51,312 nt of DNA from an uncultured Bacilli bacterium (lineage in GTDB: Bacteria > Bacillota_I > Bacilli_A > RF39 > UBA660). A program made the translations under genes and the position numbers. Position 1 is the stretch's first letter. The number at the start of each line of letters is the position of its first letter. The notes under the pieces are model-generated. The model was not told the origin of the DNA. It did not search any database and saw only the letters and a program-made list of their open reading frames with translations. Of the stretch, positions 12,159-48,203 are shown piece after piece. The DNA lies in NCBI GenBank assembly GCA_944358125.1, contig CALVQM010000001.1, positions 1 through 51,312 on the forward strand. Direction: 5' to 3'.

Positions 12159-12830
12159 TTACAACATTTTTTTGATTTCCTCGTAAATTGCTTTATGGCC
12201 TAAATAGTTTATGTAATAGCTTTCTTTATTTAAATAATAGTTTTTGTTCATTAATATTTTATTAATATCAATAAATAGAAAGTTGTTAGTTAGGGCAATA
12301 TCTCTTAAGCTGGCATTTATTTTTTCTATCGTTAATAAATCGTTTTTACCCCATGTATAAAGACTTATGACAATTACTTTATTATTATTTAGCATTTTAA
12401 TCATACTTAATAATTCTTCCATATCATGGAGATATTCTTCTTTAATTTCTCTTGTTATTTTAGTACTAGCTAGTTCATCCATGCCTATGGCTATAGTTAA
12501 GATATCAGCATTATTTATGGCTTGTTTTATTTCAATAGTTTTTTCTTTAATCGTTAGAGATTTATTTTCTTTTATTTCATATATTAATTCTTTTACAGTT
12601 TTTCCAGCGTTTGAAAATTCATGAGTATATTCTTTTAATTTGTGAGTGGCATCTAAATCATCTTTTAAATAATCATTAAAACTTTTACCTTCTATACCAT
12701 AAGGGGTCATTCCAATAGATAGGCCATCTCCTAATGATGTTAGAGTTAGTTCATTACTTTGAGTGAAAAAATAGATAATAACGGATAGTATACCTCCTAA
12801 TAATGCAATCGCTATTATCTTTTTCTTCAT
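12159..12830 (-). CDS. SGNH/GDSL-family hydrolase with N-terminal membrane anchor
   Basis: Block I motif SLGDGLSIG after a TM/signal segment. ATG at 12830 with GAGGTG 6 nt upstream. Confidence 0.6.
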   Translation of the reverse strand: MKKKIIAIALLGGILSVIIYFFTQSNELTLTSLGDGLSIGMTPYGIEGKSFNDYLKDDLDATHKLKEYTHEFSNAGKTVKELIYEIKENKSLTIKEKTIEIKQAINNADILTIAIGMDELASTKITREIKEEYLHDMEELLSMIKMLNNNKVIVISLYTWGKNDLLTIEKINASLRDIALTNNFLFIDINKILMNKNYYLNKESYYINYLGHKAIYEEIKKML

Positions 12831-12863
12831 AAATGTCACCTCAAAAAAATATAGTACACTATA

Positions 12864-14117
12864 CTATATTTCTCTTATTTCTATTTTAGCACCAACATTT
12901 GTTAGCTTACTTTCAATGCTTTCATATCCTCTTAATATATGTTCTACATCGTTAATAATAGTTGTTCCGGTAGCGGTAAGTCCCGCTAGGACTAAGGCTG
13001 CTCCGCCACGAAGATCGGTTGCTACAACTTCACATCCATGAAGTTTACTTGGACCAATAGTCATAGAACTCATACCTTTGACAGTTATATTAGCTCCCAT
13101 TTTATTTAATGATGGAACATGACCCATGCGGTTTTCCCAAATTGTTTCTTCAAATAAACTGGTACCGTTTGCTTGGGTTAATAAGACGCTCATTGGTTGA
13201 CCTATATCGGTTGGAAAACCAGGATAAACTAAAGTTTTAATATTTGTGGGTTTTAAATTATCTACTTTACTTATTATGATATTATCACTATTAATCGTAA
13301 TATCAGATTCCATGTCTTTTAATTTGCTAGTTAAAGCTTCTAAGTGTTTTGGAATGATATTCGTAATCTTCAGATTTTTACCTACTAAAGCACCGAGAAT
13401 TATGTATGTTCCGGCTTCAATACGGTCAGGTAAAACTGTTATATTACCACCATGTAATTTTTCTACACCAGTAATCGTTATTTCATCTGTTCCAGCACCT
13501 TCTATTTTGGCACCCATACTGATTAGAAAATCAGCTATATTTTCAATTTCAGCTTCTTTAGCAGCATTATGAATTACAGTTGTTCCTTCGGCTAGGACAC
13601 TGGCAAACATTAAGTTTACGGTGGCACCAACACTTTGGAATCTTAAATATATATCTGTTCCAATTAATTTATCGGCCTTTAAAATATATTTATTACCATC
13701 AATTGTTACATCGGCTCCTAAAGCTTTAAAACCATCAATATGAATATCTATTGGTCTAGCACCTATATTACAACCACCTGGAATGTATATTTCGACATAT
13801 TTTTCTTTGCCAAGTAATGCTCCCATAAAATAATAGGAAGCACGAAGTTTCTTGGAATGCTCTTCATCAATAATTGTATTTTTTAAATTTGTTGTATCTA
13901 TTTGTAATTTATCATTATCCAAAGTTACATCACAATTTAGTATTTCTAATATATCTATTAAAGCATCACGGTCTGATATGTTTGGTACATTATCTAGTTT
14001 TGATATCCCACTAGCTAGAATTGATGCAGGTATTAAAGCTACCGCACTATTTTTAGCACCACCTATAGGAATTTCCCCTGTTAAGATATTATTTCCCTCA
14101 ATTATCATTTGTTTCAT
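12864..14117 (-). CDS. murA: UDP-N-acetylglucosamine 1-carboxyvinyltransferase
   Basis: 417 aa with GGAKNSAVALIPA and the catalytic-loop PGGCNIGARPID. Confidence 0.93.
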   Translation of the reverse strand: MKQMIIEGNNILTGEIPIGGAKNSAVALIPASILASGISKLDNVPNISDRDALIDILEILNCDVTLDNDKLQIDTTNLKNTIIDEEHSKKLRASYYFMGALLGKEKYVEIYIPGGCNIGARPIDIHIDGFKALGADVTIDGNKYILKADKLIGTDIYLRFQSVGATVNLMFASVLAEGTTVIHNAAKEAEIENIADFLISMGAKIEGAGTDEITITGVEKLHGGNITVLPDRIEAGTYIILGALVGKNLKITNIIPKHLEALTSKLKDMESDITINSDNIIISKVDNLKPTNIKTLVYPGFPTDIGQPMSVLLTQANGTSLFEETIWENRMGHVPSLNKMGANITVKGMSSMTIGPSKLHGCEVVATDLRGGAALVLAGLTATGTTIINDVEHILRGYESIESKLTNVGAKIEIREI

Positions 14118-15442: not shown

Positions 15443-16966
15443 TTATTTCGATTCAATACGATTAAATAATATTTTGGGCTCATTTAATTGTAAGTTTTCT
15501 TCAAGTTTACCAAAGTCTAATGAGTCATAACTAGTTTCTTTCGTATTTAATTCTTCTAATATCTTATTTGAAGTATCTGGTATAAATGGACTTAATAAAA
15601 TAGCACAAATACGAATACTTTCTAATAAGTTGTAAAGGACTGTTGCTAGGCGATCCTTTTTGGTTTCATCTTTTGCTAATACCCATGGAGTTGTCTCATC
15701 AATATATTTATTACAACTTCTAAGTACTTCCATAATTTCTTCGATAGCTTCATTTACTTTTAAGCCATTCATTTTTTCATCTACTACTGTCTTTAAGGAT
15801 ATAACTTTGCTAATTAACTCTTCATCTATCGCTTCTGCTACTTTCGGATTTTTAGTTAGGCCATTAAAATACTTATGAGCCATAGAAATAGTACGATTAA
15901 CTAGATTTCCTAAATTGTTAGCTAAATCACTATTTGTTCGACCGATTAAAGCTTCTTCTGAAAAATTGCCATCAGAGCCAAATGGTACTTCTCTTAAAGC
16001 ATAATATCTTACAGCATCCACACCATATGCATTAATATATTCTCTTGGATCTTTGTAATTCCCTAAACTTTTAGAAATTTTCCCACCATCTATTTTTAAC
16101 CAACCATGGCCGAAAACTTGTTTTGGTAGGGGAAGATCTAAAGCCATTAGCATACATGGCCAAATAATAACGTGAAATCTAGTTATTTCTTTTCCTACTA
16201 AATGAAGATCGGCTGGCCAATATTTTTTCATTAAAGTATCATCTTCGGGATAACCTAGGGAAGTTATATAGTTTGATAAAGCATCAATCCAGACATAAAC
16301 CACGTGTTTCGGATCAAAATCTACGGGTATTCCCCATGTAAAACTTGTTCTTGATACACATAAATCTTCTAATCCAGGCTTGATAAAATTATTTAACATT
16401 TCGTTTTTACGAGATATTGGTAAAATAAAGTCTGGGTGTTCTTCATAGTATTTAATAAGTTTATCTTGGTATTTTGATAGTTTGAAAAAGTATGCTTCTT
16501 CACTAACTAGTTTAACCTCTCTACCACAATCAGGACATTTGCCATCTTTAGCTTGGGACTCTGTCCAAAATGATTCACAAGGAATACAATACAATCCTTG
16601 ATAGGTTCCTTTATAAATATCACCTTGATTATATAGCTTTTTAAAAATTTTCTGGACACGTCTTACATGATCTTCATCAGTTGTACGAATAAAATAGTCG
16701 TAAGAAATATTTAGAGACTTCCATAGGTCTTTAGCATCCTTAATAATTTTATCGACATACTCTTTGGGTGTTACTCCAGCTTCACGAGCCTTTTTTTCGA
16801 TTTTTTCACCATGTTCATCTGTACCTGTTTGAAAATAAACATCATAACCTGTTAATCTTTTGTATCTAGCACAAGCATCGGCGATAATGGTCGTATAACA
16901 GTGACCAATATGGAAATTAGCACTTGGATAGTAAATTGGTGTTGTTACATAATATTTTTCTTTCAT
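15443..16966 (-). CDS. metG: methionine--tRNA ligase (short form)
   Basis: 507 aa with the HIGH-type motif ANFHIGHCY, KISKS, and the zinc knuckle CPDCG. Confidence 0.93.
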   Translation of the reverse strand: MKEKYYVTTPIYYPSANFHIGHCYTTIIADACARYKRLTGYDVYFQTGTDEHGEKIEKKAREAGVTPKEYVDKIIKDAKDLWKSLNISYDYFIRTTDEDHVRRVQKIFKKLYNQGDIYKGTYQGLYCIPCESFWTESQAKDGKCPDCGREVKLVSEEAYFFKLSKYQDKLIKYYEEHPDFILPISRKNEMLNNFIKPGLEDLCVSRTSFTWGIPVDFDPKHVVYVWIDALSNYITSLGYPEDDTLMKKYWPADLHLVGKEITRFHVIIWPCMLMALDLPLPKQVFGHGWLKIDGGKISKSLGNYKDPREYINAYGVDAVRYYALREVPFGSDGNFSEEALIGRTNSDLANNLGNLVNRTISMAHKYFNGLTKNPKVAEAIDEELISKVISLKTVVDEKMNGLKVNEAIEEIMEVLRSCNKYIDETTPWVLAKDETKKDRLATVLYNLLESIRICAILLSPFIPDTSNKILEELNTKETSYDSLDFGKLEENLQLNEPKILFNRIESK

Positions 16967-16984: not shown

Positions 16985-17192
16985 ATAAAATAAAAAATCA
17001 TAAACTAAGGACGAGTAAATACCCGTGGTACCACCTTAATTCATGATTTTATTCATGCACTTTACTTTTATAACGGTAAGTTGCCGTCTAAACTCCAGAG
17101 TCATCTTCCTCATTATCTAGTGTTTATTTTCATCAGCCATAAACTTTCTTTAAGCGTAGATAATAAGTACTCATTCCTTCAACATTTAAGAT
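16985..17192 (-). promoter_or_regulatory. T-box riboswitch leader of metG
   Basis: Promoter TTGACA(17222-17227)-17 nt-TATAAT(17199-17204). T-box sequence AATTAAGGTGGTACCACGGG (rc of 17022..17041). Long terminator helix AATCATGAATTAAGG/CCTTAGTTTATGATT followed by TTTTTTATTTT. Candidate specifier GAAG-AUG-A at 17102..17104. Confidence 0.85.
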
Positions 17193-17340: not shown

Positions 17341-17532
17341 ATGAAGAAAGCTGGTAGACCTAAAGGTAAAAATAAGAATGCAAGACTAAATATAATGATT
17401 GAAGAAAAAATTAAGAGCGAATACAAAAAAATTGCTCAAAAAAATGGAACTAACATTTCAGTTAAAACTTGTGAATTAATAGTTAAATATATAAATGAAA
17501 ACAAGGAGGCACAAAATAATGAACGTTATTGA
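17341..17532 (+). CDS. small ribbon-helix-helix-like protein, 63 aa (possible R-M controller)
   Basis: Basic N-terminus, then the beta-strand-like RLNIMI and two helices. The stop overlaps the methyltransferase ATG by 14 nt. Confidence 0.45.
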   Translation: MKKAGRPKGKNKNARLNIMIEEKIKSEYKKIAQKNGTNISVKTCELIVKYINENKEAQNNERY

Positions 17533-18637
17533 TTTATTTGCAGGATGTGGTGGATTAAGTTTAGGTTTTGAAATGGAAAATTTTAATGTTCTACTAGCTA
17601 TTGAAAAAGATGAATGGGCTGCTGAAACTTACAAAAAAAATCATCCTATTACTAATGTAATTATAGATGATATTACGAAAATAACGAATTTAGAAAATTT
17701 ATTACCAAAAAATACGACTATTGATGGAATTATTGGGGGACCTCCTTGTCAAGGATTTTCATTAAGTGGAAACAGAGATAAAAATGATCCAAGAAATAGT
17801 TTATTTATGGATTTTGTAAGATTTGTTAATTTTTTTAAGCCTAAATTTTTTGTAATGGAAAATGTAACGGGAATTTTATCAATGAAAACAAAGGAAAATA
17901 TGTTAGTGAAAGATCTAATTTTACAAGAATATGATAAAGCAGGATACAATGTTAAAATTTGTAAATTAAATGCTGCTGATTTTGGAGTGCCGCAAGCGAG
18001 AGTTAGAGTTGTTTTTATGGGTATTAGAAAAGATTTGCCTTTTAATGAAGATAAATTAGAGCCGAAACCCATATATTCCGAAAATGAATATGTCACAATT
18101 GAGCAAGCGATTATGGATTTGCCACAAATAAATTCTGGGGAAGGAGCAGAAGAAATGGACTATACTTGTGAGCCACAAAATAATTATCAACGATGGGCTA
18201 GAGGTAATAGTAGAAAAGTTTATAATCATGTTGCCATGCGTCATACTCAAAGGCTAATAAATCGATTTGATAATATTAAATTTGGGCAATCGGTTGCAGA
18301 CGTTGATGATTGTCACAAACAAAGAAAAAGAGGAGATGCATCAAAAATTAGTGGCAAAACTTTTTCTCAAAATAACATGAGACCATTTCCTGATAAGCCA
18401 TCACCGACAATTCCTGCCAGTTTTCAAAGTAATTTTATACATCCATATATAAATAGAAATTATACTGCTAGAGAAGGTGCAAGATTACAATCTTTTCCTG
18501 ATGATTATATTTTTTGTGGAAAAAGAACTACTATGTCTTGGGAAAAAAATTTATCTCAATATCAGCAAATTGGAAATGCAGTTCCACCCCTACTTGCTGA
18601 TGCTATAGCAAAAAATCTGCTTAACTATTTTAGTTAA
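17519..18637 (+). CDS. DNA (cytosine-5)-methyltransferase
   Basis: Motifs I FAGCGG, IV GGPPCQGFS, VI ENV, VIII QARVRV and X GNAVPP. ATG at 17519, 8 nt after AAGGAGG. Confidence 0.92.
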   Translation: MNVIDLFAGCGGLSLGFEMENFNVLLAIEKDEWAAETYKKNHPITNVIIDDITKITNLENLLPKNTTIDGIIGGPPCQGFSLSGNRDKNDPRNSLFMDFVRFVNFFKPKFFVMENVTGILSMKTKENMLVKDLILQEYDKAGYNVKICKLNAADFGVPQARVRVVFMGIRKDLPFNEDKLEPKPIYSENEYVTIEQAIMDLPQINSGEGAEEMDYTCEPQNNYQRWARGNSRKVYNHVAMRHTQRLINRFDNIKFGQSVADVDDCHKQRKRGDASKISGKTFSQNNMRPFPDKPSPTIPASFQSNFIHPYINRNYTAREGARLQSFPDDYIFCGKRTTMSWEKNLSQYQQIGNAVPPLLADAIAKNLLNYFS

Positions 18638-18704: not shown

Positions 18705-19427
18705 TTATATATCTTTACTAATTTGATTATAGTAATCTTTTAATACTGTATAATCAATTAGGGATTTTTCATTAAATCTTAAAACAAACATTTCATCTAA
18801 AATTTTATCATATCTAGCAGATATTATTTTATCATTTCCAACTTGGTTAGTTTCCATTAAGACATAGGTTTTAACATTTGGTGTTGCACTTTTTAATAAC
18901 TTACTAGAAAATTGTACTTCGCCAAACATGGTTGCATCTAAATAGGTTTTTACTTCGACAGCAATTATTGGCAAAATAATTTCAAAAGTATCATTTTCTA
19001 TTTTTATACTTACTTTTTTGCCAATACAGAAATCTATGTCTTTTTTCATAATATTTACTTTAAGATCATTTCCTATTTTTATTCCAGCATAAATACCTTT
19101 GTTATAAATACCTAATTCACCATTTTTTATATATTTATTATCCTGAAATAAATATGTACTTAATTCTTCTAAAAAAGTAGAACGAAATTTAGATTGTGAT
19201 GTTATGTTATTTTCTCTAGTAAATACATTTAATTTGGTATAATAATTATTTATAACTTCTGTGGCTTCTTTAAAAGTATTCTCATCTAAATTAGAAAAAT
19301 CAAAAGCTAATAATTTCATTTTAGTTTCTAAATACACATTTTCATAAAATTCCTTTATTTTTTCGCCTATTCCACCATAATTATTATGAATTTTATTTTT
19401 AAAGTTATTTTCATGTATATACAACAT
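18705..19427 (-). CDS. putative type II restriction endonuclease (PD-(D/E)xK-like)
   Basis: Convergent partner of the m5C methyltransferase. Candidate catalytic pattern DIDFCIG...AVEVKTYLD. ATG at 19427 follows AGGAGG. The family was not identified. Confidence 0.5.
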   Translation of the reverse strand: MLYIHENNFKNKIHNNYGGIGEKIKEFYENVYLETKMKLLAFDFSNLDENTFKEATEVINNYYTKLNVFTRENNITSQSKFRSTFLEELSTYLFQDNKYIKNGELGIYNKGIYAGIKIGNDLKVNIMKKDIDFCIGKKVSIKIENDTFEIILPIIAVEVKTYLDATMFGEVQFSSKLLKSATPNVKTYVLMETNQVGNDKIISARYDKILDEMFVLRFNEKSLIDYTVLKDYYNQISKDI

Positions 19428-19494
19428 ATTGGTGCCTCCTAAAAACATTATAACACAAATAGTTGATATTTTAAAATATTGGGTGGATTTTATC

Positions 19495-20010
19495 TTATAT
19501 ATCTAATTTTTGAGAAAAGATACTTGCTATAAGTTTTCCTATAATTATCTCATCTTTAATAGGAGTATCACTATACATGATAATTAGACCAATACTATCA
19601 TTTAAAGAAATAATAGGAATAAATACAAAATTGCCATTTAAAGTATATTCTCCCATTATTTCTGATGTATTTTCTTTAGTTATAATCTCTCTATTTTCTA
19701 AAATATTTAAATATTCTTGATTTAATAACTTGCCCTTTAAATCACTTGAAAGGCCAGCATGGGCTATAATTTTTTCCCGATCTGTAATAATTATTTTATA
19801 ATTAAAGTTATTATATATTAAATCGCATAAGTTACTTGCTAAATCACTATTTGTTGTCATACGATAATATTTTTTTAGGATAATACTGTCATTTTCAGTG
19901 AATATTTCCATGTTTTCACCATCTCTTATTCCTAAATTTCTTCGGATTTCTTTCGGTATAACAATGCGTCCTAGTTCATCAATTCTTCTTACTACTCCAG
20001 TAGACTTCAA
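19495..20010 (-). CDS. spoVT: stage V sporulation protein T (AbrB-type N-terminus plus GAF-like domain)
   Basis: MKSTGVVRRIDELGRIVIPKEIRRNLGIRDGE, a length of 171 aa, and a position downstream of mfd as in B. subtilis. Confidence 0.85.
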   Translation of the reverse strand: MKSTGVVRRIDELGRIVIPKEIRRNLGIRDGENMEIFTENDSIILKKYYRMTTNSDLASNLCDLIYNNFNYKIIITDREKIIAHAGLSSDLKGKLLNQEYLNILENREIITKENTSEIMGEYTLNGNFVFIPIISLNDSIGLIIMYSDTPIKDEIIIGKLIASIFSQKLDI

Positions 20011-28353: not shown

Positions 28354-30018
28354 TTATTCAATTTCTATTTTTTCTTTATCAAATATATCATAAGCGATTT
28401 TTTCAATATTATCAATATTATTTTCTTCTTCTTTGGCGATTTTTGGTTCTTCTATATAGTGATATTCATGTTTGTCGTGTAAATTTTTAATATATTCATG
28501 TTTTTCTTCATTCCATTTAGTTTCAGTTAAAGCAATAAATTTATATTCTATATTAAATGCTTTATTAAATAAGTCTTCTATTTCATTTAATCTATTGTTA
28601 ATTAAATTTGATGTTCCATCAATTATGCTGGTTAAAACACCTATTTTATCACTTGCAGTTACAACATTACAATCAATTAAAAGGTTCAACAAACTTTTAT
28701 CACTTAAATTATCCACAAATTTTTTCCACATTTCTTTTAAATTTTGTAAATATTGTTTTTTAGCATTTACAAAACAATTATTTACCCTAATTTTTATTAA
28801 TTCAGTATAGGTCTCTGGTTGTGAAATTATTTCCCGGGAAATAATTTTAACTGGGGCTTCTTCATTTGTGATGGCAACGGGTGCTGGTGTTTTTATTTTT
28901 TCGGTATTTTCTTTAATTATTTCCCGGGAAATAAATTTTGTGGTGCTTTGATTATTTTGAATAATTTCATCTACCACTTGTTCTTCTTTTTTTGTGCCTG
29001 GAAAATATTTTAATAAAGTTATTTCAATTAAAAGATATGGATCAATACTCATATTAACATAATTGGATATGTCTGCAAGAGCAAAAGCCATTTCTTTTAA
29101 TTTATCATAAGATAATCCTTGATAGTTATAGTCTTTTTTTGCTTTAATAGCTTCTTCTTCAATTTTTTCTAGCATTTTTTTAATTAAAACTTTATAGTCG
29201 ATAGCTAATTCCTTAAATTTTTTCATCATACTATCAAAGTTATCCACATTATTTTCTAATATTAAATTAAATAAGTCATTAATTTGTTTTTTTGAGACCG
29301 AACCAAAGTGTTCTATGACATCATTTATAGTTATTTTTTCCGTGGTACTTGATAATTGATCTAAAATACTTAAAGCATCACGCATACCACCATCAGAAAT
29401 ATAAGCTATTTCTTCTAACGCATCATCATCTATAGCTATATTTTCTTCAGATATAACAAATTTTAGACGATTTATAATATCAGCTATAGATATTTTATGA
29501 AAATCAAATCTTTGACAACGTGAAAGAATGGTTATAGGCACTGCTTCAATGTTGGTAGTTGCCAATATAAAGACTACATGTTTAGGTGGCTCTTCTAATG
29601 TTAATAATAAGGCATTAAAGGCACTGGTACTTAACATGTGAACCTCATCTATTATATACACTTTGTATTTAGAATAGGCTGGGGCTAATTTAATATTATT
29701 AATAATTTCCCGTATTTCATCTACACCATTATTTGAAGCTGCATCAATTTCAATAATATCAGCATTTTCTTTAAAATGGAGGCAGCTATCACATTCATTA
29801 CATGGTCCTTCATTAGTCGGATTTAAGCAGTTAATAGCTTTCGCAAAAACCTTGGCTGTGCTAGTTTTTCCCGTTCCTCTTGGACCTGAAAATATATAAG
29901 CATGTGATATTTTTTCTGTTTTTATAGCATTTTTTAATATTGAAACCATGTAATCTTGCCCAACAATACTTGAAAAATTGTCTGGTCTATATTTACGATA
30001 TAATACTTTGTAATCCAT
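28354..30018 (-). CDS. dnaX: DNA polymerase III subunits gamma/tau
   Basis: Walker A GPRGTGKTS, zinc module CNECDSC, and Walker B IIDEVHMLS. Confidence 0.93.
   Translation of the reverse strand: MDYKVLYRKYRPDNFSSIVGQDYMVSILKNAIKTEKISHAYIFSGPRGTGKTSTAKVFAKAINCLNPTNEGPCNECDSCLHFKENADIIEIDAASNNGVDEIREIINNIKLAPAYSKYKVYIIDEVHMLSTSAFNALLLTLEEPPKHVVFILATTNIEAVPITILSRCQRFDFHKISIADIINRLKFVISEENIAIDDDALEEIAYISDGGMRDALSILDQLSSTTEKITINDVIEHFGSVSKKQINDLFNLILENNVDNFDSMMKKFKELAIDYKVLIKKMLEKIEEEAIKAKKDYNYQGLSYDKLKEMAFALADISNYVNMSIDPYLLIEITLLKYFPGTKKEEQVVDEIIQNNQSTTKFISREIIKENTEKIKTPAPVAITNEEAPVKIISREIISQPETYTELIKIRVNNCFVNAKKQYLQNLKEMWKKFVDNLSDKSLLNLLIDCNVVTASDKIGVLTSIIDGTSNLINNRLNEIEDLFNKAFNIEYKFIALTETKWNEEKHEYIKNLHDKHEYHYIEEPKIAKEEENNIDNIEKIAYDIFDKEKIEIE
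28824..28847. promoter_or_regulatory. NBS palindrome (24-bp extended) inside the dnaX linker
   Basis: AAATTATTTCCCGGGAAATAATTT, read as IISREIIS. Confidence 0.75.
28917..28934. promoter_or_regulatory. NBS palindrome inside the dnaX linker
   Basis: TTATTTCCCGGGAAATAA, read as FISREIIK, 90 bp from the previous copy. Confidence 0.75.
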
Positions 30019-30479: not shown

Positions 30480-30492
30480 ATTATCACCCAAT

Positions 30493-30569
30493 AAAAAAGT
30501 GCACACAAATAGAGATTGACGTGGCTGCTACCTCCCGGTCCTGACCAGATTACAATATATTTGTTGCAC
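30493..30569 (-). ncRNA. ffs: signal recognition particle RNA, short 4.5S type (about 77 nt)
   Basis: Minus strand CTGGTCAGGACCGGGAGGTAGCAGCCACG matches the conserved domain IV (GGUCAGGUCCGGAAGGAAGCAGCC) with a GGGA tetraloop. Terminal helix GTGCAACAAATA/TATTTGTGTGCAC followed by TTTTTT. Promoter TTGCAA(30599-30604)-17 nt-TAAATT(30576-30581). Confidence 0.85.
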
Positions 30570-30610
30570 ATATATAATTTATCATAAAAAGTTGGAAATT
30601 GCAAGTCCTA

Positions 30611-30626
30611 TGTTTCACGTGAAACT
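30611..30626. promoter_or_regulatory. parS site 1 (15/16)
   Basis: TGTTTCACGTGAAACT versus the Firmicute consensus TGTTNCACGTGAAACA. Confidence 0.75.
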
Positions 30627-30666
30627 ATATTTTTTACATTTTTACTTATTAATGATCTTATAAAAA

Positions 30667-30682
30667 TGTTTCACGTGAAACA
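30667..30682. promoter_or_regulatory. parS site 2 (perfect)
   Basis: TGTTTCACGTGAAACA. Confidence 0.85.
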
Positions 30683-30787
30683 TTGTTAGTAACTATTTTT
30701 GATATTTTCTATTTATTTTAATATATATTTTTATTATTAAAGTTTATTAATTTAAAATTAATTTTTAAATTTAATAACATTTTTTAA

Positions 30788-30803
30788 TGTTCCACGTGGA
30801 ACA
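30788..30803. promoter_or_regulatory. parS site 3 (symmetric variant)
   Basis: TGTTCCACGTGGAACA, a perfect palindrome. The left half equals the B. subtilis parS half-site. Confidence 0.75.
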
Positions 30804-30834
30804 TGGTGGATATTATTTTAGGTTTATGTTTTAA

Positions 30835-30850
30835 TGTTTCACGTGAAACA
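30835..30850. promoter_or_regulatory. parS site 4 (perfect, within a 24-bp palindrome 30831..30854)
   Basis: TTAATGTTTCACGTGAAACATTAA. Confidence 0.85.
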
Positions 30851-31041
30851 TTAATTTTTGTTACGTAAATCACATTAATTTTGATTTTTTTAAATTCAAC
30901 ATACAAATCGTTAAATTCACTAATCAAATTGAGAAATTTGCCAGAGAAATTTATTATTTTTGCTTTTGAAATAACTAATTCAACTAGCGGTTGAATTAAT
31001 AAAAGTCAGATCAAAATAAAGTACATTTTTGTGGTTATTAT

Positions 31042-31057
31042 AGTTTCACGTGAAACG
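31042..31057. promoter_or_regulatory. parS site 5 (14/16, outer bases differ)
   Basis: AGTTTCACGTGAAACG. Confidence 0.65.
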
Positions 31058-31125
31058 TTTTCGTTTTTCCCACCATTTTTATAGTTATCCACAATTTTTC
31101 AATATTTATTTTTTTAATTTTATGC

Positions 31126-31157
31126 AAATAAAAAACCATTAGATTATTCTAACGGTT
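31126..31157 (-). terminator. intrinsic terminator of gyrA
   Basis: Minus strand AACCGTTAG-loop-CTAATGGTT followed by TTTTTATTT. Confidence 0.7.
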
Positions 31158-31172
31158 CTTTATTTATTAATT

Positions 31173-33629
31173 TTATTGCTGTTCTTCACTATTAACATCT
31201 TGATCAATTGCTTCATCATCTAGTTCTTCTTTTTCAACTAGACTAATAGTAGTTACGTATTGATCATCTTTTAAATGAATTAATCTAACACCTTGTGTTA
31301 CTCTTCCTAAAGTATTAATTTGATCTAAAGTCATTCTCATGGTTGTTCCGGTATTAGTCATTATAACTAATTCTTTGTTTTCATCAACAACTTTTACAGC
31401 TGCTATATTACCATTTTTTTCAGTAATATTTAGGGCTTTTACTCCTTTACTGCCACGACTTGTTTCTCTAAAATCACTTACTAAAGTCTTTTTTCCATAT
31501 CCTTTTTCAGTTACCAACAATATTTTATCATTTTCATTTACTACTTCGGCACAAACACATTTACTTCCATCAAGATTTATTCCTTTGACACCACTAGCTG
31601 TACGACCCATAGGTCTAATTTTATCTTCATAAAATTTTACCATTCGACCGGTTTGGCTACCTAGTAAAATATAATTATTACCATTGGTACGCTTTACGGC
31701 AAGTAATTCATCATTTTCTTTTAAATTAATACAAATTTTGCCTGACGTACGTATGTTTGAAAACTCTTCGATTGCGGTTTTCTTAACTAAACCTTGTTTA
31801 GTAACAAATAATAAATATTTTGTATCTTCTTTAGATGAAATTCCTAATATAGAACTGATTGTTTCATCTTTTTCAATTGGAATTAAATTAATAATTGGAA
31901 GACCTTTAGATTGTCGATTAAATTCTGGTATTTCATATCCTTTAATTCGATATACTTTTCCTTTATTAGTAAAGAATAAAACGTGATCATGAGATGAAAT
32001 ATTAATAATTTCTTCAACAAAGTCTTCATCATTGGTTGTCATACCTTTAATACCCATGCCACCACGTTTTTGTGCTTTAAAGGTATCAGATGTAGTTCTT
32101 TTAATATAACCTTTATTAGTCATGGCTATAAGTACATTTTCTTCAGGAATTAAAGATTCATCTTCAATATATTCAATAGCGGTCATATCAATATCTGTAC
32201 GACGTTTATCACCATATTTATCTTTAATTTCTAATAATTCTTCTTTAATAATATTTAATACTTTTTCTTCAGAAGCAAGAATACCTCTTAATTCTTCAAT
32301 TAATTTTAATAACTCATTTAATTCTTCTTCAATTTTATCTCTTTCCAAGCCTGTTAATCTTCTTAAACGCATTTCTAATATGGCTTCAGCTTGAACATCA
32401 CTTAAATTGAAATTGTTCATTAAACCAGCTTTAGCTTCTTCATCAGAGGCAGATGCTCTAATTAATTTAATTACAGCATCAATATGATCTAAAGCGATTT
32501 TTAATCCTTCTAAAATATGAACTCTTTTTTCAGCCTTATCTAGGTCAAATTGGGTTCTTCTAATAATAACTTCTTTTTGATAATCAATATATTTTGAAAT
32601 AATATCTTTTAATCCAAGTGTTTTAGGTACACCATTATCAAGCATTAAGAAAATAATACCATAGGTTGTTTGAAAAGCGGTGTGTTTATATAATTTATTT
32701 AAAATAACACTAGCATTTGCATCTTTTTTTAAAGTAATTGTAATTTTGATACCATCTTTTAGATCAGCATGATAATCAGTAATACCTTCTAATACCTTGT
32801 TATGAACGAGTTCAGCAACTTTGTTTTTAAGTTCTAGGGTATTTACACCATATGGTACTTCATCAACGATAATATATTGTCTACCATTTTTTTCTTCAAT
32901 ATGAGCACGGCTCCTAATAGTAATTGTTCCCCGACCTGTTTCATAGGCTTTTTTAATACCACTATTACCGAGAATTAAAGCTCCTGTTGGAAAATCGGGA
33001 CCTTTAATATACTCCATTAAACCGTTTACATCAATGTCAGGATTATCAATATAGGCTATACAACCATCAATTACTTCACCAAGATTATGAGGAGGAATAT
33101 TGGTTGCCATACCAACAGCGATACCCATAGTTCCATTTACTAATATATTCGGAAATCTTGATGGTAATACTTCTGGTTCTTTCGTTGTTTCATCATAGTT
33201 TGGTAAGAAGTTCACCGTATTTTTATTAATATCTCTTAATAATTCCATAGATATTTTAGCTAGTTTAGCTTCGGTATAACGGTAAGCAGCAGCTCCATAA
33301 CCTTCAATGTTACCAAAGTTTCCATGACCGTCTACTAACATATAACGATAGTTAAAATCTTGAGCCATTCTTACCATTGCTTCATAAATACTTGAGTCTC
33401 CATGTGGGTGATATTTACCCATTACATCACCAACAATAGTTGCAGATTTACGATGTTGTTTATCTGGAGTTAAGCCATTTTGAAGCATATCATATAAAAT
33501 TCTTCGATGAACTGGTTTTAGTCCATCTCTTAAATCTGGTAGGGCACGAGATACAATAACACTCATGGAATACTCAAGAAATGAATCTTTTATTTCAGTT
33601 ACTATATTATTTTGTTCTAATCTATCCAT
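31173..33629 (-). CDS. gyrA: DNA gyrase subunit A
   Basis: 818 aa with the QRDR region [17 protein letters not shown], the active-site [10 protein letters not shown], and a beta-pinwheel C-terminal domain. Confidence 0.96.
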
Positions 33630-36747: not shown

Positions 36748-37188
36748 TTAGTGTTTTCGGCCTTTTAAGGCTGAAAGTAACCGTGTTGCCCGAAGGACTT
36801 GGCGATCAAATATTGTACAACTTATTTCTAAATCAATTTCGCGGTTATTTTTAAAGATAACTGTTACTTGATTATCATTTTTTAGGTAATATTTTAAAAT
36901 ATTTTGAGATACAAGCCAAATACAGTTTGGGTGAAGATAAGAATGTGTTGGTATTAAAATTAGCTTCTTTACTTCATCAATTACTATTGGTGGTTTGTAA
37001 GTTGCTCCAATTAAAGAACTACTTCCATGTCTCCTTCCTGCTAAAGTGGATCCAGATAGAACACAATTATGTTCTAATATTTGGAGAATAGGCTCATCAA
37101 TTAAAATATCATTACTAGTTTCTAGTATATGAGTTTTATCCCCTTCGGGAATGAGAGCAAGTGTTTTTTCTTTTATTATATACGGCAT
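36748..37188 (-). CDS. comK: ComK-family protein, 146 aa
   Basis: Aligns by eye to B. subtilis ComK. LALIPEG aligns with IAVLPEE. SGSTLAGRRHGS aligns with GSSYAGRKAGT. YKPPIVID aligns with HKPPIMVD. LILIPTHS..HPNCIWL aligns with IFLFPTLS..RPQCGWI. FDRQVLRATRL aligns with FENQVYRTAWL. ATG at 37188, 8 nt after AAAGGGGG. Confidence 0.65.
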   Translation of the reverse strand: MPYIIKEKTLALIPEGDKTHILETSNDILIDEPILQILEHNCVLSGSTLAGRRHGSSSLIGATYKPPIVIDEVKKLILIPTHSYLHPNCIWLVSQNILKYYLKNDNQVTVIFKNNREIDLEISCTIFDRQVLRATRLLSALKGRKH

Positions 37189-37196
37189 GACCAATG

Positions 37197-39916: not shown

Positions 39917-40320
39917 ATTAATTGTATCGCATTTTTTTTGTAATTTAAAGTCTAAAATGACAAATTTTTTTATTCACATGTTATCCACATGACTTATGCC
40001 TTATAATACCTTAGTTTTTAGGTTTTATCAACATTATCCACAAAATTTATTAAAAATTTATTCACTATTCACAATTTTAAAATTTTAGTTAATTGTTAGT
40101 AATGTGGATAACTTTTAAATTTGATACACAAGAAGCGGTTGTTACAGGGATTAGATATAAATATGGTTTTGTGGATAACTAGGTTTTTATTCACATTTTA
40201 ATTCAAAAATGGTGTTGATAAATATTTTTCTTATTCTTTTTTATTATAAGTGATTGTTTATAAAAAGTGGATAGTTTTATTTTCGAGCTTCTAACCCGGT
40301 TATTCCTTAAAAAAACTTGA
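39917..40320. other. oriC DnaA-box cluster upstream of dnaA
   Basis: Perfect TTATCCACA/TGTGGATAA boxes at 39981..39989, 40034..40042, 40103..40111 and 40170..40178. One-mismatch TTATTCACA boxes at 39970..39978 and 40187..40195. Confidence 0.85.
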
Positions 40321-46844: not shown

Positions 46845-48203
46845 ATGGCTAAAAAGGTTGTTATTGATCCTGGTCATGGAGGAGAAGATCCTGGAACTAG
46901 TGCTAATGGAATTGTTGAAAAAGATTATACTTTGTTAATTAGTCAATATATGGCTGATCGTTTAACGGAACTAGGAATAGAAAATGCTTTAACTAGGGAT
47001 AGTGATGTTACACTTGATTCAACGACAAGACCTAAGACTGCTCAAAGTTTATTTGGTACGGGTAGTGATGTTATTTTGGTATCTAATCATATTAACGCTG
47101 GTGGTGGAGATGGAGCAGAAATAATTTATGCTTTAAGAAATAGTGATACTTTATCTAGTAAGATAGCTAGTGAATTTATTAAGTCTGGACAAAATGTAAG
47201 AAAGTATTATCAAAGAAGACTTCCTAGTAATTCTAGTAAAGATTATTATTACATTTTAAGAGAAACACCTAATAATGAATCTATTATTGTGGAATATGGC
47301 TTTGCTGATTCAACAGGGGATGATGTCAATCAAATTAAAAATAATTATAAAGAACTTGCTGAGGCAGTTGTAAGGGCTCTTGCTAATTATATTGGTGTAG
47401 CTTATACAGCTCCAGCAGGAAGTGGTGGTAATTATTATACGGTTAAAGCTGGAGATACTTTATATGGAATTGCAAGAAATTATGGTATTAGTGTTGATGA
47501 ACTTAAAGCTGCTAATAATTTAACAAGTAATACTCTTACGATTGGAGAAGTATTAATTATTCCGGAAGTAGAGACACCAGAAACTCCTGATGAAAATATT
47601 TATATTGTTAAAAGTGGAGATACTCTTTATTCTATTGCCAATAAATATGGGATGAGTGTTAATGAACTTAAATCTTTAAATAATGTTACAAGTGATGTTT
47701 TATCTATTGGTCAGGAATTAATAGTTAGTGAAGGTAACGCAGCAACACTCGATACTTATACAGTTAAATCTGGTGATACTTTGTATAGTATTGCTAATAA
47801 ATATGGTTTAACAGTAAATGAATTAAAGCAACTTAATAATTTAACTAGTGATATTTTAAGTATTGGACAAGTGTTAAATATTAGTAATAGTGTATCATCT
47901 CCTAACCCATCTAATACTTATACAGTTAAAAGTGGAGATTCTTTATATAGTATTGCTAAAAAGTATGGTATAACGGTAGATGCTTTAAAAAGTGCTAATG
48001 GAAAAACTTCTAATTTACTTTCTATTGGAGAAATATTAGTTATACCAACTACAACAGCGACTACTAGAACTTACACTGTTAAATCTGGTGATAGTTTGTG
48101 GAAAATAGCTACTAATTATGGGGTTAGTGTGAATGCTTTAAAGCAAGCGAATGGCCTTACAAGTGATCTTTTATCAATAGGTCAAGTACTTGTAATTCCT
48201 TAG
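46845..48203 (+). CDS. N-acetylmuramoyl-L-alanine amidase (Amidase_3) with five LysM repeats
   Basis: VIDPGHGGEDPGT...HINAGGG catalytic domain. Five tandem LysM repeats of the YTVKSGDTLYSIA..YG..V..LK..N.L.S..L.IGQ.L.I type. No N-terminal signal peptide is visible. Confidence 0.9.
   Translation: MAKKVVIDPGHGGEDPGTSANGIVEKDYTLLISQYMADRLTELGIENALTRDSDVTLDSTTRPKTAQSLFGTGSDVILVSNHINAGGGDGAEIIYALRNSDTLSSKIASEFIKSGQNVRKYYQRRLPSNSSKDYYYILRETPNNESIIVEYGFADSTGDDVNQIKNNYKELAEAVVRALANYIGVAYTAPAGSGGNYYTVKAGDTLYGIARNYGISVDELKAANNLTSNTLTIGEVLIIPEVETPETPDENIYIVKSGDTLYSIANKYGMSVNELKSLNNVTSDVLSIGQELIVSEGNAATLDTYTVKSGDTLYSIANKYGLTVNELKQLNNLTSDILSIGQVLNISNSVSSPNPSNTYTVKSGDSLYSIAKKYGITVDALKSANGKTSNLLSIGEILVIPTTTATTRTYTVKSGDSLWKIATNYGVSVNALKQANGLTSDLLSIGQVLVIP

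Follow-up and report, generated by a model that had tools for sequence, protein, structure and literature searches.

A cluster of parS sites between gyrA and the SRP RNA gene near the replication origin of uncultured Bacilli

In Bacillus subtilis, parS occurs as single sites that are dispersed over hundreds of kilobases, mostly within genes, and spo0J-soj adjoin noc at oriC. A different arrangement is found in the stretch of DNA that was analysed here (the window), a complete metagenomic contig of 51,312 bases from an uncultured bacterium: five parS-like palindromes lie in 447 bp of non-coding DNA (30611-31057) downstream of gyrA, with no other in 51 kb, and neither spo0J nor soj was found near noc, gyrA or oriC in the regions examined. 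This raises the question whether the five palindromes together act as a centromere, and which protein would read them. Why parS sites cluster is an open question in the field (PMC7333895).

The array and its genomic setting

All five palindromes have a perfect 14-bp core, GTTyCACGTGrAAC, and differ from the 16-bp Firmicute parS consensus TGTTNCACGTGAAACA at zero to two positions each (Table 1). A core scan of the 51,312 bases gave no further site with at most two mismatches. The chance expectation for a 16-mer with at most two mismatches is 0.03 per window, and none of 100 shuffles attained five sites. The sites are far above chance and, within the 51-kb window, limited to the gap between gyrA and the SRP RNA gene. 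No periodicity or repeat unit was found in the array: the spacings are 56, 121, 47 and 207 bp, and similarity ends at the sites. The array holds no Noc-binding site (NBS), even when three mismatches are allowed. The sequence-only reading of this DNA had listed five copies of the Firmicute parS consensus with irregular spacings, and its sequences, positions and spacings are all correct, as is the assignment to the consensus, which also agrees with the origin-proximal position.

Table 1 Features of the array, its surroundings and the Noc-NBS system (positions in the window unless a contig is named)
Feature	Position	Strand	Remarks
SRP RNA gene (ffs)	30483-30580	minus	Downstream neighbour of the array; Rfam RF00169, 62.9 bits
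Promoter-like element of the SRP RNA gene	30576-30604	minus	-35 TTGCAA (30599-30604), 17-nt spacer, extended -10 TGATAAATT (30576-30584)
Non-coding gap holding the array	30581-31172		592 bp, from the SRP RNA gene to the gyrA stop codon
parS 1	30611-30626		TGTTTCACGTGAAACT; perfect 14-bp core; upstream of the SRP RNA gene, 6 bp from its promoter-like TTGCAA; position kept in L002-L005
parS 2	30667-30682		TGTTTCACGTGAAACA; perfect 16-mer; aligns with a site in L002-L005
parS 3	30788-30803		TGTTCCACGTGGAACA; symmetric variant
parS 4	30835-30850		TGTTTCACGTGAAACA; perfect 16-mer
parS 5	31042-31057		AGTTTCACGTGAAACG; perfect core, both outer bases altered; kept beside the DnaA box in L002, L003 and L005
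Consensus DnaA box	31085-31093	plus	TTATCCACA; between parS 5 and the gyrA terminator
gyrA terminator hairpin	31126-31165	minus	-19.6 kcal/mol, z = -7.3; inverted repeat, stem flanked by an A-run and a T-run
gyrA	31173-33629	minus	Upstream neighbour of the array; translation, 63-97% identity to gyrA of 80 genomes
oriC DnaA-box cluster	39970-40221		Upstream of dnaA; nine boxes (up to one mismatch), of which four are perfect
Perfect NBS	15427, 20577, 25239, 28829, 28919, 35906		ATTTCCCGGGAAAT; 14 bp each; all outside the array
Noc-type ParB-family gene	L082 13946-15262		About 3.2 kb past the left end of the window

No ORF of at least 50 aa (translation table 11) is present in the gap (30581-31172), and a hairpin follows gyrA. 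A simple consensus scan reported neither a terminator nor an SRP RNA promoter, the promoter scoring 8/12 where the scan needs 9/12. The terminator was recognised by folding and the promoter-like element by alignment, in which the TTGCAA/TGATAAATT pair is kept in the four nearest relatives (L002-L005); we infer that this pair is the SRP RNA promoter. The ORF-free gap between gyrA terminator and SRP RNA promoter that had been described is thus indeed present, and the same holds for the consensus DnaA box at its edge. The description of signals that point away from the gap on both sides is right for the SRP RNA promoter but not for the other side. Since gyrA and the SRP RNA gene both lie on the minus strand, gyrA transcription enters the gap and ends at the hairpin. 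The distance between array and oriC, which had been put at about 9 kb from dnaA, is about 9.2 kb, as measured from the oriC DnaA-box cluster that adjoins the GC-skew minimum near 38-39 kb.

The contig has a low GC content (28%) and comes from a member of the class Bacilli that has a cell wall and uses translation table 11, the latter because in-frame TGA is missing from real genes. A Mollicute reading with table 4, which the low GC content prompted, was rejected on the absence of in-frame TGA from real genes and the presence of murA and a LysM amidase. The nearest named relative is Candidatus Caccenecus avistercoris, with 97% gyrA identity and about 91% DNA identity. Relatives are frequently labelled 'Tenericutes', yet cell-wall and sporulation-type genes are present: murA and genes for a LysM amidase and a SpoVT C-terminal domain protein occur in the window (19498-19911, 12864-14117, 46845-48203), and a cell-wall hydrolase (Pfam Hydrolase_2), DivIC, YabP, SpoVG and a Peptidase_U57 (YabG-family) protease are encoded just past its right end (L153-L158).

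On the minus strand, dnaA, dnaN, a comK-like gene, recF, gyrB and gyrA follow each other outward from oriC up to the array gap, beyond which come the SRP RNA gene, tadA, dnaX and recR and later mfd, metG, murA, rplM-rpsI and mnmE-mnmG-rsmG; rpmH, rnpA, yidC and jag lie on the opposite side of oriC. The gene between dnaN and recF (36751-37191, minus strand) belongs to the ComK family (PF06338, E = 2.8e-33), and an ORF of similar length and sequence occupies this position in a relative (L033); in B. subtilis this place is taken by yaaA. A T-box leader (17004-17191; Rfam, 111 bits) is located upstream of the methionyl-tRNA synthetase gene (15443-16966), both on the minus strand. Two genes close to it (17495-18637, plus strand; 18708-19448, minus strand) probably make up a restriction-modification pair of type II. 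The motifs FAGCGG, PPCQGFS and ENV identify the methylase as a C5 cytosine methyltransferase, and the nuclease is similar to Bpu10I (Pfam E = 1.8e-9). Other assemblies of the lineage stop near this pair.

Conservation of the locus in related species

For comparison, 80 loci were fetched via gyrA, one genome per species, nearly all from uncultured gut Bacilli and with gyrA 63-97% identical. A parS site with a perfect core directly follows gyrA in 74 of the 80 species, and at least two sites are present in 60 of the 65 loci for which at least 1 kb of downstream sequence is available (median 4, maximum 18). Six loci lack a perfect-core site, four of which are on contigs that end within 380 bp of gyrA. 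In the 1.45 Mb of gyrA loci, all parS sites with at most one mismatch are found from 78 bp before the gyrA stop codon to 3 kb after it. The SRP RNA gene follows the array in all six relatives tested. Sites inside dnaX occur in three relatives (L042 14441-14546, L051 4768-4882 and L054 13970-14045).

When the window is aligned with its four closest relatives (L002-L005; mean column identity 57%), parS sites, gyrA terminator, DnaA box and SRP RNA promoter are in register and the spacers are not; the DNA identity of L002 and L003 to the window is 84-91%, and between species the array spacers are unrelated. Since the sites align while the spacers diverge, this comparison is strong evidence that the sites are kept by selection. 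Exact tandem-repeat arrays with periods of 36-117 bp were found in nine relatives, for example 15 units of 36 bp in L066, 11 of 53 bp in L014 and 7 of 64 bp in L073, and the other arrays are irregular like that of the window. To judge from such repeats, arrays evidently grow and shrink by tandem duplication. Conservation of the array in relatives, which had been set beforehand as a check, was thus found at the same gap in 74 of 80 species, and together with the consensus and the origin-proximal position this supports the centromere-like identity that was proposed for the locus. The suggested likeness to plasmid centromeres can be maintained for the nine relatives with exact repeats and not for the window, whose own array is not periodic.

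What sets the number of parS sites is also listed as an open question (PMC7333895), and one orthologous locus with 1-18 sites in 74 species offers a natural series for it. Because of this range, and of the fresh tandem amplifications, the gain, loss and spacing of centromere sites become open to comparative study. Tight intergenic parS clusters are not unique to the clade, since small tandem clusters (2-4 sites, 35-46 bp apart) occur in unrelated organisms just upstream of soj-spo0J, on contigs with 49-58% GC (L134/L135 8959-9052, L139 510-571, L142 1135-1269).

The same comparison bears on other explanations for the palindromes. They could be operators for an unrelated CACGTG-centred transcription factor that regulates the SRP RNA gene, tadA-dnaX or gyrA, which would fit the location of parS 1 just upstream of the promoter-like -35 element and the conservation of this position in the four closest relatives. 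However, about 330 sites from 74 species still match the Firmicute parS consensus over all 16 bp, the number of sites and their distance to the promoter vary freely, some relatives have sites inside dnaX, and amplification to 7-15 tandem copies is not normal for operators; we consider an operator function very improbable. It is just as hard to believe that the gap serves chiefly to bind DnaA or to control replication, like the DnaA-box clusters outside oriC of Bacillus subtilis, with parS being secondary. The consensus DnaA box is kept after the gyrA terminator in genus-level relatives (+49 to +104 after gyrA in L002, L003, L005, L006, L007, L009, L026 and L056), a perfect box directly abuts a parS site in L003 and L004 (GTTATCCACAATGTTTCACGTG), and the density of perfect boxes in arrays is about six times that of the flanks (0.38 versus 0.06 per kb). 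On the other hand, the gap of the window has a single perfect box, three more isolated perfect boxes are present in the window outside oriC, and no more than 13 of 66 arrays contain a perfect box, whereas parS is present almost everywhere. The box at the array edge may add replication-linked control. Finally, exact tandem arrays in nine relatives, and the fact that several contigs break within or just before the array, could be taken as signs of a neutral or selfish repeat expansion that has no present function. This is extremely unlikely in view of the aperiodic array of the window with spacers that share nothing beyond the sites, of cores that stay perfect while spacers diverge, and of the occupation of the locus in 74 of 80 species over the whole range of gyrA identity.

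Candidate readers of the sites

In most Firmicutes, spo0J adjoins noc, near oriC. No ParB-family protein was found in the window by motif and tblastn scans and by Pfam searches on ORFs of unknown function. A ParB of the parS type, defined by R173 and G201 (Caulobacter numbering), was found neither within 10 kb past the right end of the window in the same species, nor within 10 kb beyond rsmG in congeneric contigs, nor within 10 kb of gyrA in the 80 relatives. The surroundings of noc, up to 10 kb away, were likewise negative in about 50 clade loci, among them the closest noc-bearing contigs found and long-read contigs from Ca. C. avistercoris. Of about 130 clade loci, none had a ParB-family gene other than the Noc-type ones within 10 kb of gyrA or noc. 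Neither soj nor spo0J follows noc in L033, L082, L159-L164 and the metagenome loci, and in the regions examined no clade locus was matched in tblastn with B. subtilis Soj, the matches being confined to high-GC outgroup loci. Unrelated high-GC contigs have soj-spo0J at the usual place, beside small parS clusters. Since the part of the genome that was read comprises about 70 kb around oriC, a parS-type ParB may lie elsewhere.

A congeneric contig with about 91% DNA identity (L082) continues past the left end of the window with rsmG, a gene for a 584-aa unknown protein, an IS remnant and a gene for a 438-aa ParB-family protein, which NCBI labels only as 'ParB/RepB/Spo0J family partition protein'. 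Its best matches among solved structures are to Noc (7ng0, E = 3.5e-54), with Spo0J behind, and it scores 292 bits against the Noc model TIGR04285, under the cut-off of 315 bits. We take its C-terminal tail to resemble the C-terminal domain of B. subtilis Noc. At the specificity residues 173/179/184/201 it reads Q-K-N-R, and in a metagenome scan around noc all 49 clade orthologues in which these positions are covered read QK[NTSAG]R. Specificity for parS or NBS is set by four residues, which read RTAG in ParB and QKKR in Noc; R173 is retained in all parS-specific variants, and a QKKR variant of Caulobacter ParB switches fully to NBS (PMC7383237). By these sequence matches, the ParB-family protein encoded near the window is Noc-type. 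As a candidate for the cognate ParB of the array it was rejected, with solved-structure matches, family model and specificity residues all being of the Noc type.

The Noc-type residues Q173, K179 and R201 pair with the six perfect NBS of the window, which are spread over 20 kb on the dnaA side of oriC, mostly within genes, at about one per 8.5 kb of window. With up to three mismatches, nine NBS matches are observed against a shuffle mean of 2.8. In its NBS sites ATTTCCCGGGAAAT and its congeneric Noc-type protein, the window resembles the Noc-NBS system of B. subtilis, which differs in site and in protein from the parS of the array; in relatives, NBS and parS are interleaved in one array. The clade protein deviates from B. 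subtilis Noc by a very short N-terminus before the ParB N-terminal domain and by an acidic low-complexity insertion of about 190 aa ahead of the Noc-like C-terminal domain (L082, also L159-L164), as well as by its score below the TIGR04285 cut-off. Two of the NBS (28829-28842 and 28919-28932) are in the variable linker of the dnaX gene, where they encode ISREI. The dnaX genes of L042, L051 and L054 carry parS instead, apparently at a comparable position, and NBS and parS may replace each other inside the dnaX coding region.

The sites themselves give information on the number of readers. Among palindromes with the pattern xTTyCzCGzGyAAx, 327 of the parS type (G1 and A6 in both halves) and 140 of the NBS type (A1 and C6 in both halves) were counted in 2.14 Mb of DNA from the clade. 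Mixed palindromes and G1/C6 half-sites are both absent from this DNA, and A/A half-sites number only six. One relaxed reader would be expected to tolerate hybrid sites, and their absence makes a single relaxed reader for parS and NBS unlikely. Since the site classes are discrete, they point to two readers, a dedicated parS reader being distinct from Noc.

It is nevertheless conceivable that canonical Spo0J/ParB and Soj have been lost in the clade and that parS is read by a Noc-type paralogue that binds both parS and NBS, or by an unrecognised protein. The only ParB-family gene in any clade locus is of the Noc type, the place for soj-spo0J after noc is vacant, NBS and parS occur in one array in 26 relatives, and dual-specificity variants occur in mutational scans (PMC7383237). 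Against such a loss, every clade orthologue has the combination Q173, K179 and R201, with which Caulobacter ParB switches fully to NBS, while parS-specific variants keep R173; the 481 sites form two discrete classes, and hybrid half-sites and mixed palindromes are both missing from them; and the part of the genome that was read is only about 70 kb. We therefore regard it as unlikely. If the sites are functional, a canonical ParB encoded elsewhere is very probably their reader, because of the two discrete site classes and of the published mutational scans, in which R173 is kept and QKKR switches specificity.

Proposed role and composite arrays in relatives

The reading that we prefer, with a probability of roughly 0.7, is that the five palindromes are genuine, selected parS sites that jointly form the origin-proximal centromere of the chromosome, with a ParB of the Spo0J type, encoded outside the region read, loading SMC. 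The array would be the place, close to the origin, where ParB and probably also SMC are loaded; its role as a hub we infer. A Spo0J-type ParB (R173, G201) with a gene outside the roughly 70 kb read would nucleate on each site as a CTP-bound clamp. As the gyrA terminator delimits the gap on one side and the SRP RNA promoter on the other, an efficient terminator would keep RNA polymerase off the sites, and the presence of several sites in about 450 bp would allow a high loading rate. From the sites the clamps would slide to the DNA on either side and there recruit SMC, at a distance of about 9 kb from oriC. Since a Soj/ParA gene was not seen, SMC loading and origin organisation would be the main output, as in the ParA-less Streptococcus pneumoniae and Staphylococcus aureus.

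The latter two organisms have few, dispersed parS sites and a known parB gene, whereas the sites of the window form a dense array and parB was not located in the regions examined. What they share with the window is that Soj/ParA is not seen, that parS is near the origin and that SMC loading is expected rather than ParA-driven transport (PMC7333895). ParA-less ParB-parS-SMC systems are established, and the number of parS sites near the origin varies from 1 to 23 (PMC7333895). The exact tandem units of some relatives, each with one palindrome, are similar to sopC of the F plasmid, which consists of 12 tandem 43-bp repeats, each with a 16-bp inverted repeat. In contrast to sopC, the array of the window is irregular and has no repeat unit, its sites are chromosomal parS and not the SopB site, and the locus is chromosomal and without adjacent partition genes. 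The parS clusters of Streptomyces coelicolor, Listeria innocua, Pseudomonas aeruginosa and Caulobacter extend over kilobases to hundreds of kilobases and include genic sites, whereas here a single intergenic gap, whose syntenic position is the same throughout the clade, contains the whole set, with tandem amplification in some species. These clusters, with 20-23 sites in S. coelicolor and L. innocua and a cluster of four in P. aeruginosa, have in common with the window that multiple sites are near the origin (PMC7333895). The B. subtilis Spo0J(ParB)-parS system agrees in the 16-bp consensus and in being origin-proximal, and the proposed output, a ParB-CTP clamp that recruits SMC, is also alike (PMC7333895). 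The array is a conserved centromere-like locus of an already known kind, the chromosomal parS cluster.

In the genus of the window, the array contains parS only. In 26 relatives, perfect NBS also occur within the array downstream of gyrA, and 15 of these have at least two NBS. In the 14 arrays with at least two sites of each type, 83 of 107 steps between neighbours switch type, whereas in 5,000 shuffles such switches average 56.6 and never exceed 74. Judged by composite tandem units such as those of L041 (75 bp; array 12550-13230), L030 (64 bp) and L063 (117 bp), with a unit of 84 bp also found, this alternation is partly inherited by the duplication of such units. Irregular arrays (L016, L044, L061) alternate too, and L026 is also composite. 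In the literature searched we found no description of composite parS/NBS arrays. Spo0J and Noc are reported to act jointly in the control of the division site in B. subtilis (PMC6852036), and the alternating arrays suggest side-by-side loading of ParB and Noc, which would tie in with this joint action. The gap between gyrA and the SRP RNA gene might in this clade even serve to nucleate both kinds of CTP-dependent ParB-family clamp, with ParB loading at parS and Noc at the NBS interleaved with it; such a dedicated hub would be remodelled by tandem amplification, lie far from the genes of the binding proteins and work in the absence of ParA. This proposal is tentative, and we give it somewhat less than an even chance. 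If true, the hub would link the loading of SMC with the tethering of the origin region to the membrane and with its division control. The pattern across the clade is worth following up, the composite arrays of relatives most of all.

The array also marks the origin region in uncultured genomes that are often mislabelled 'Tenericutes'. It may contribute to assembly breaks, since several contigs stop just after gyrA. Breaks are also seen at the left end of the window (positions 1-40), where several independent assemblies of the species break right after rsmG. A further contig begins just before noc, the loci concerned by these breaks including L001, L154 and L162, and a congener carries an IS-like remnant between rsmG and noc. 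The independent breaks after rsmG and the start before noc suggest a repeated or variable element between these two genes.
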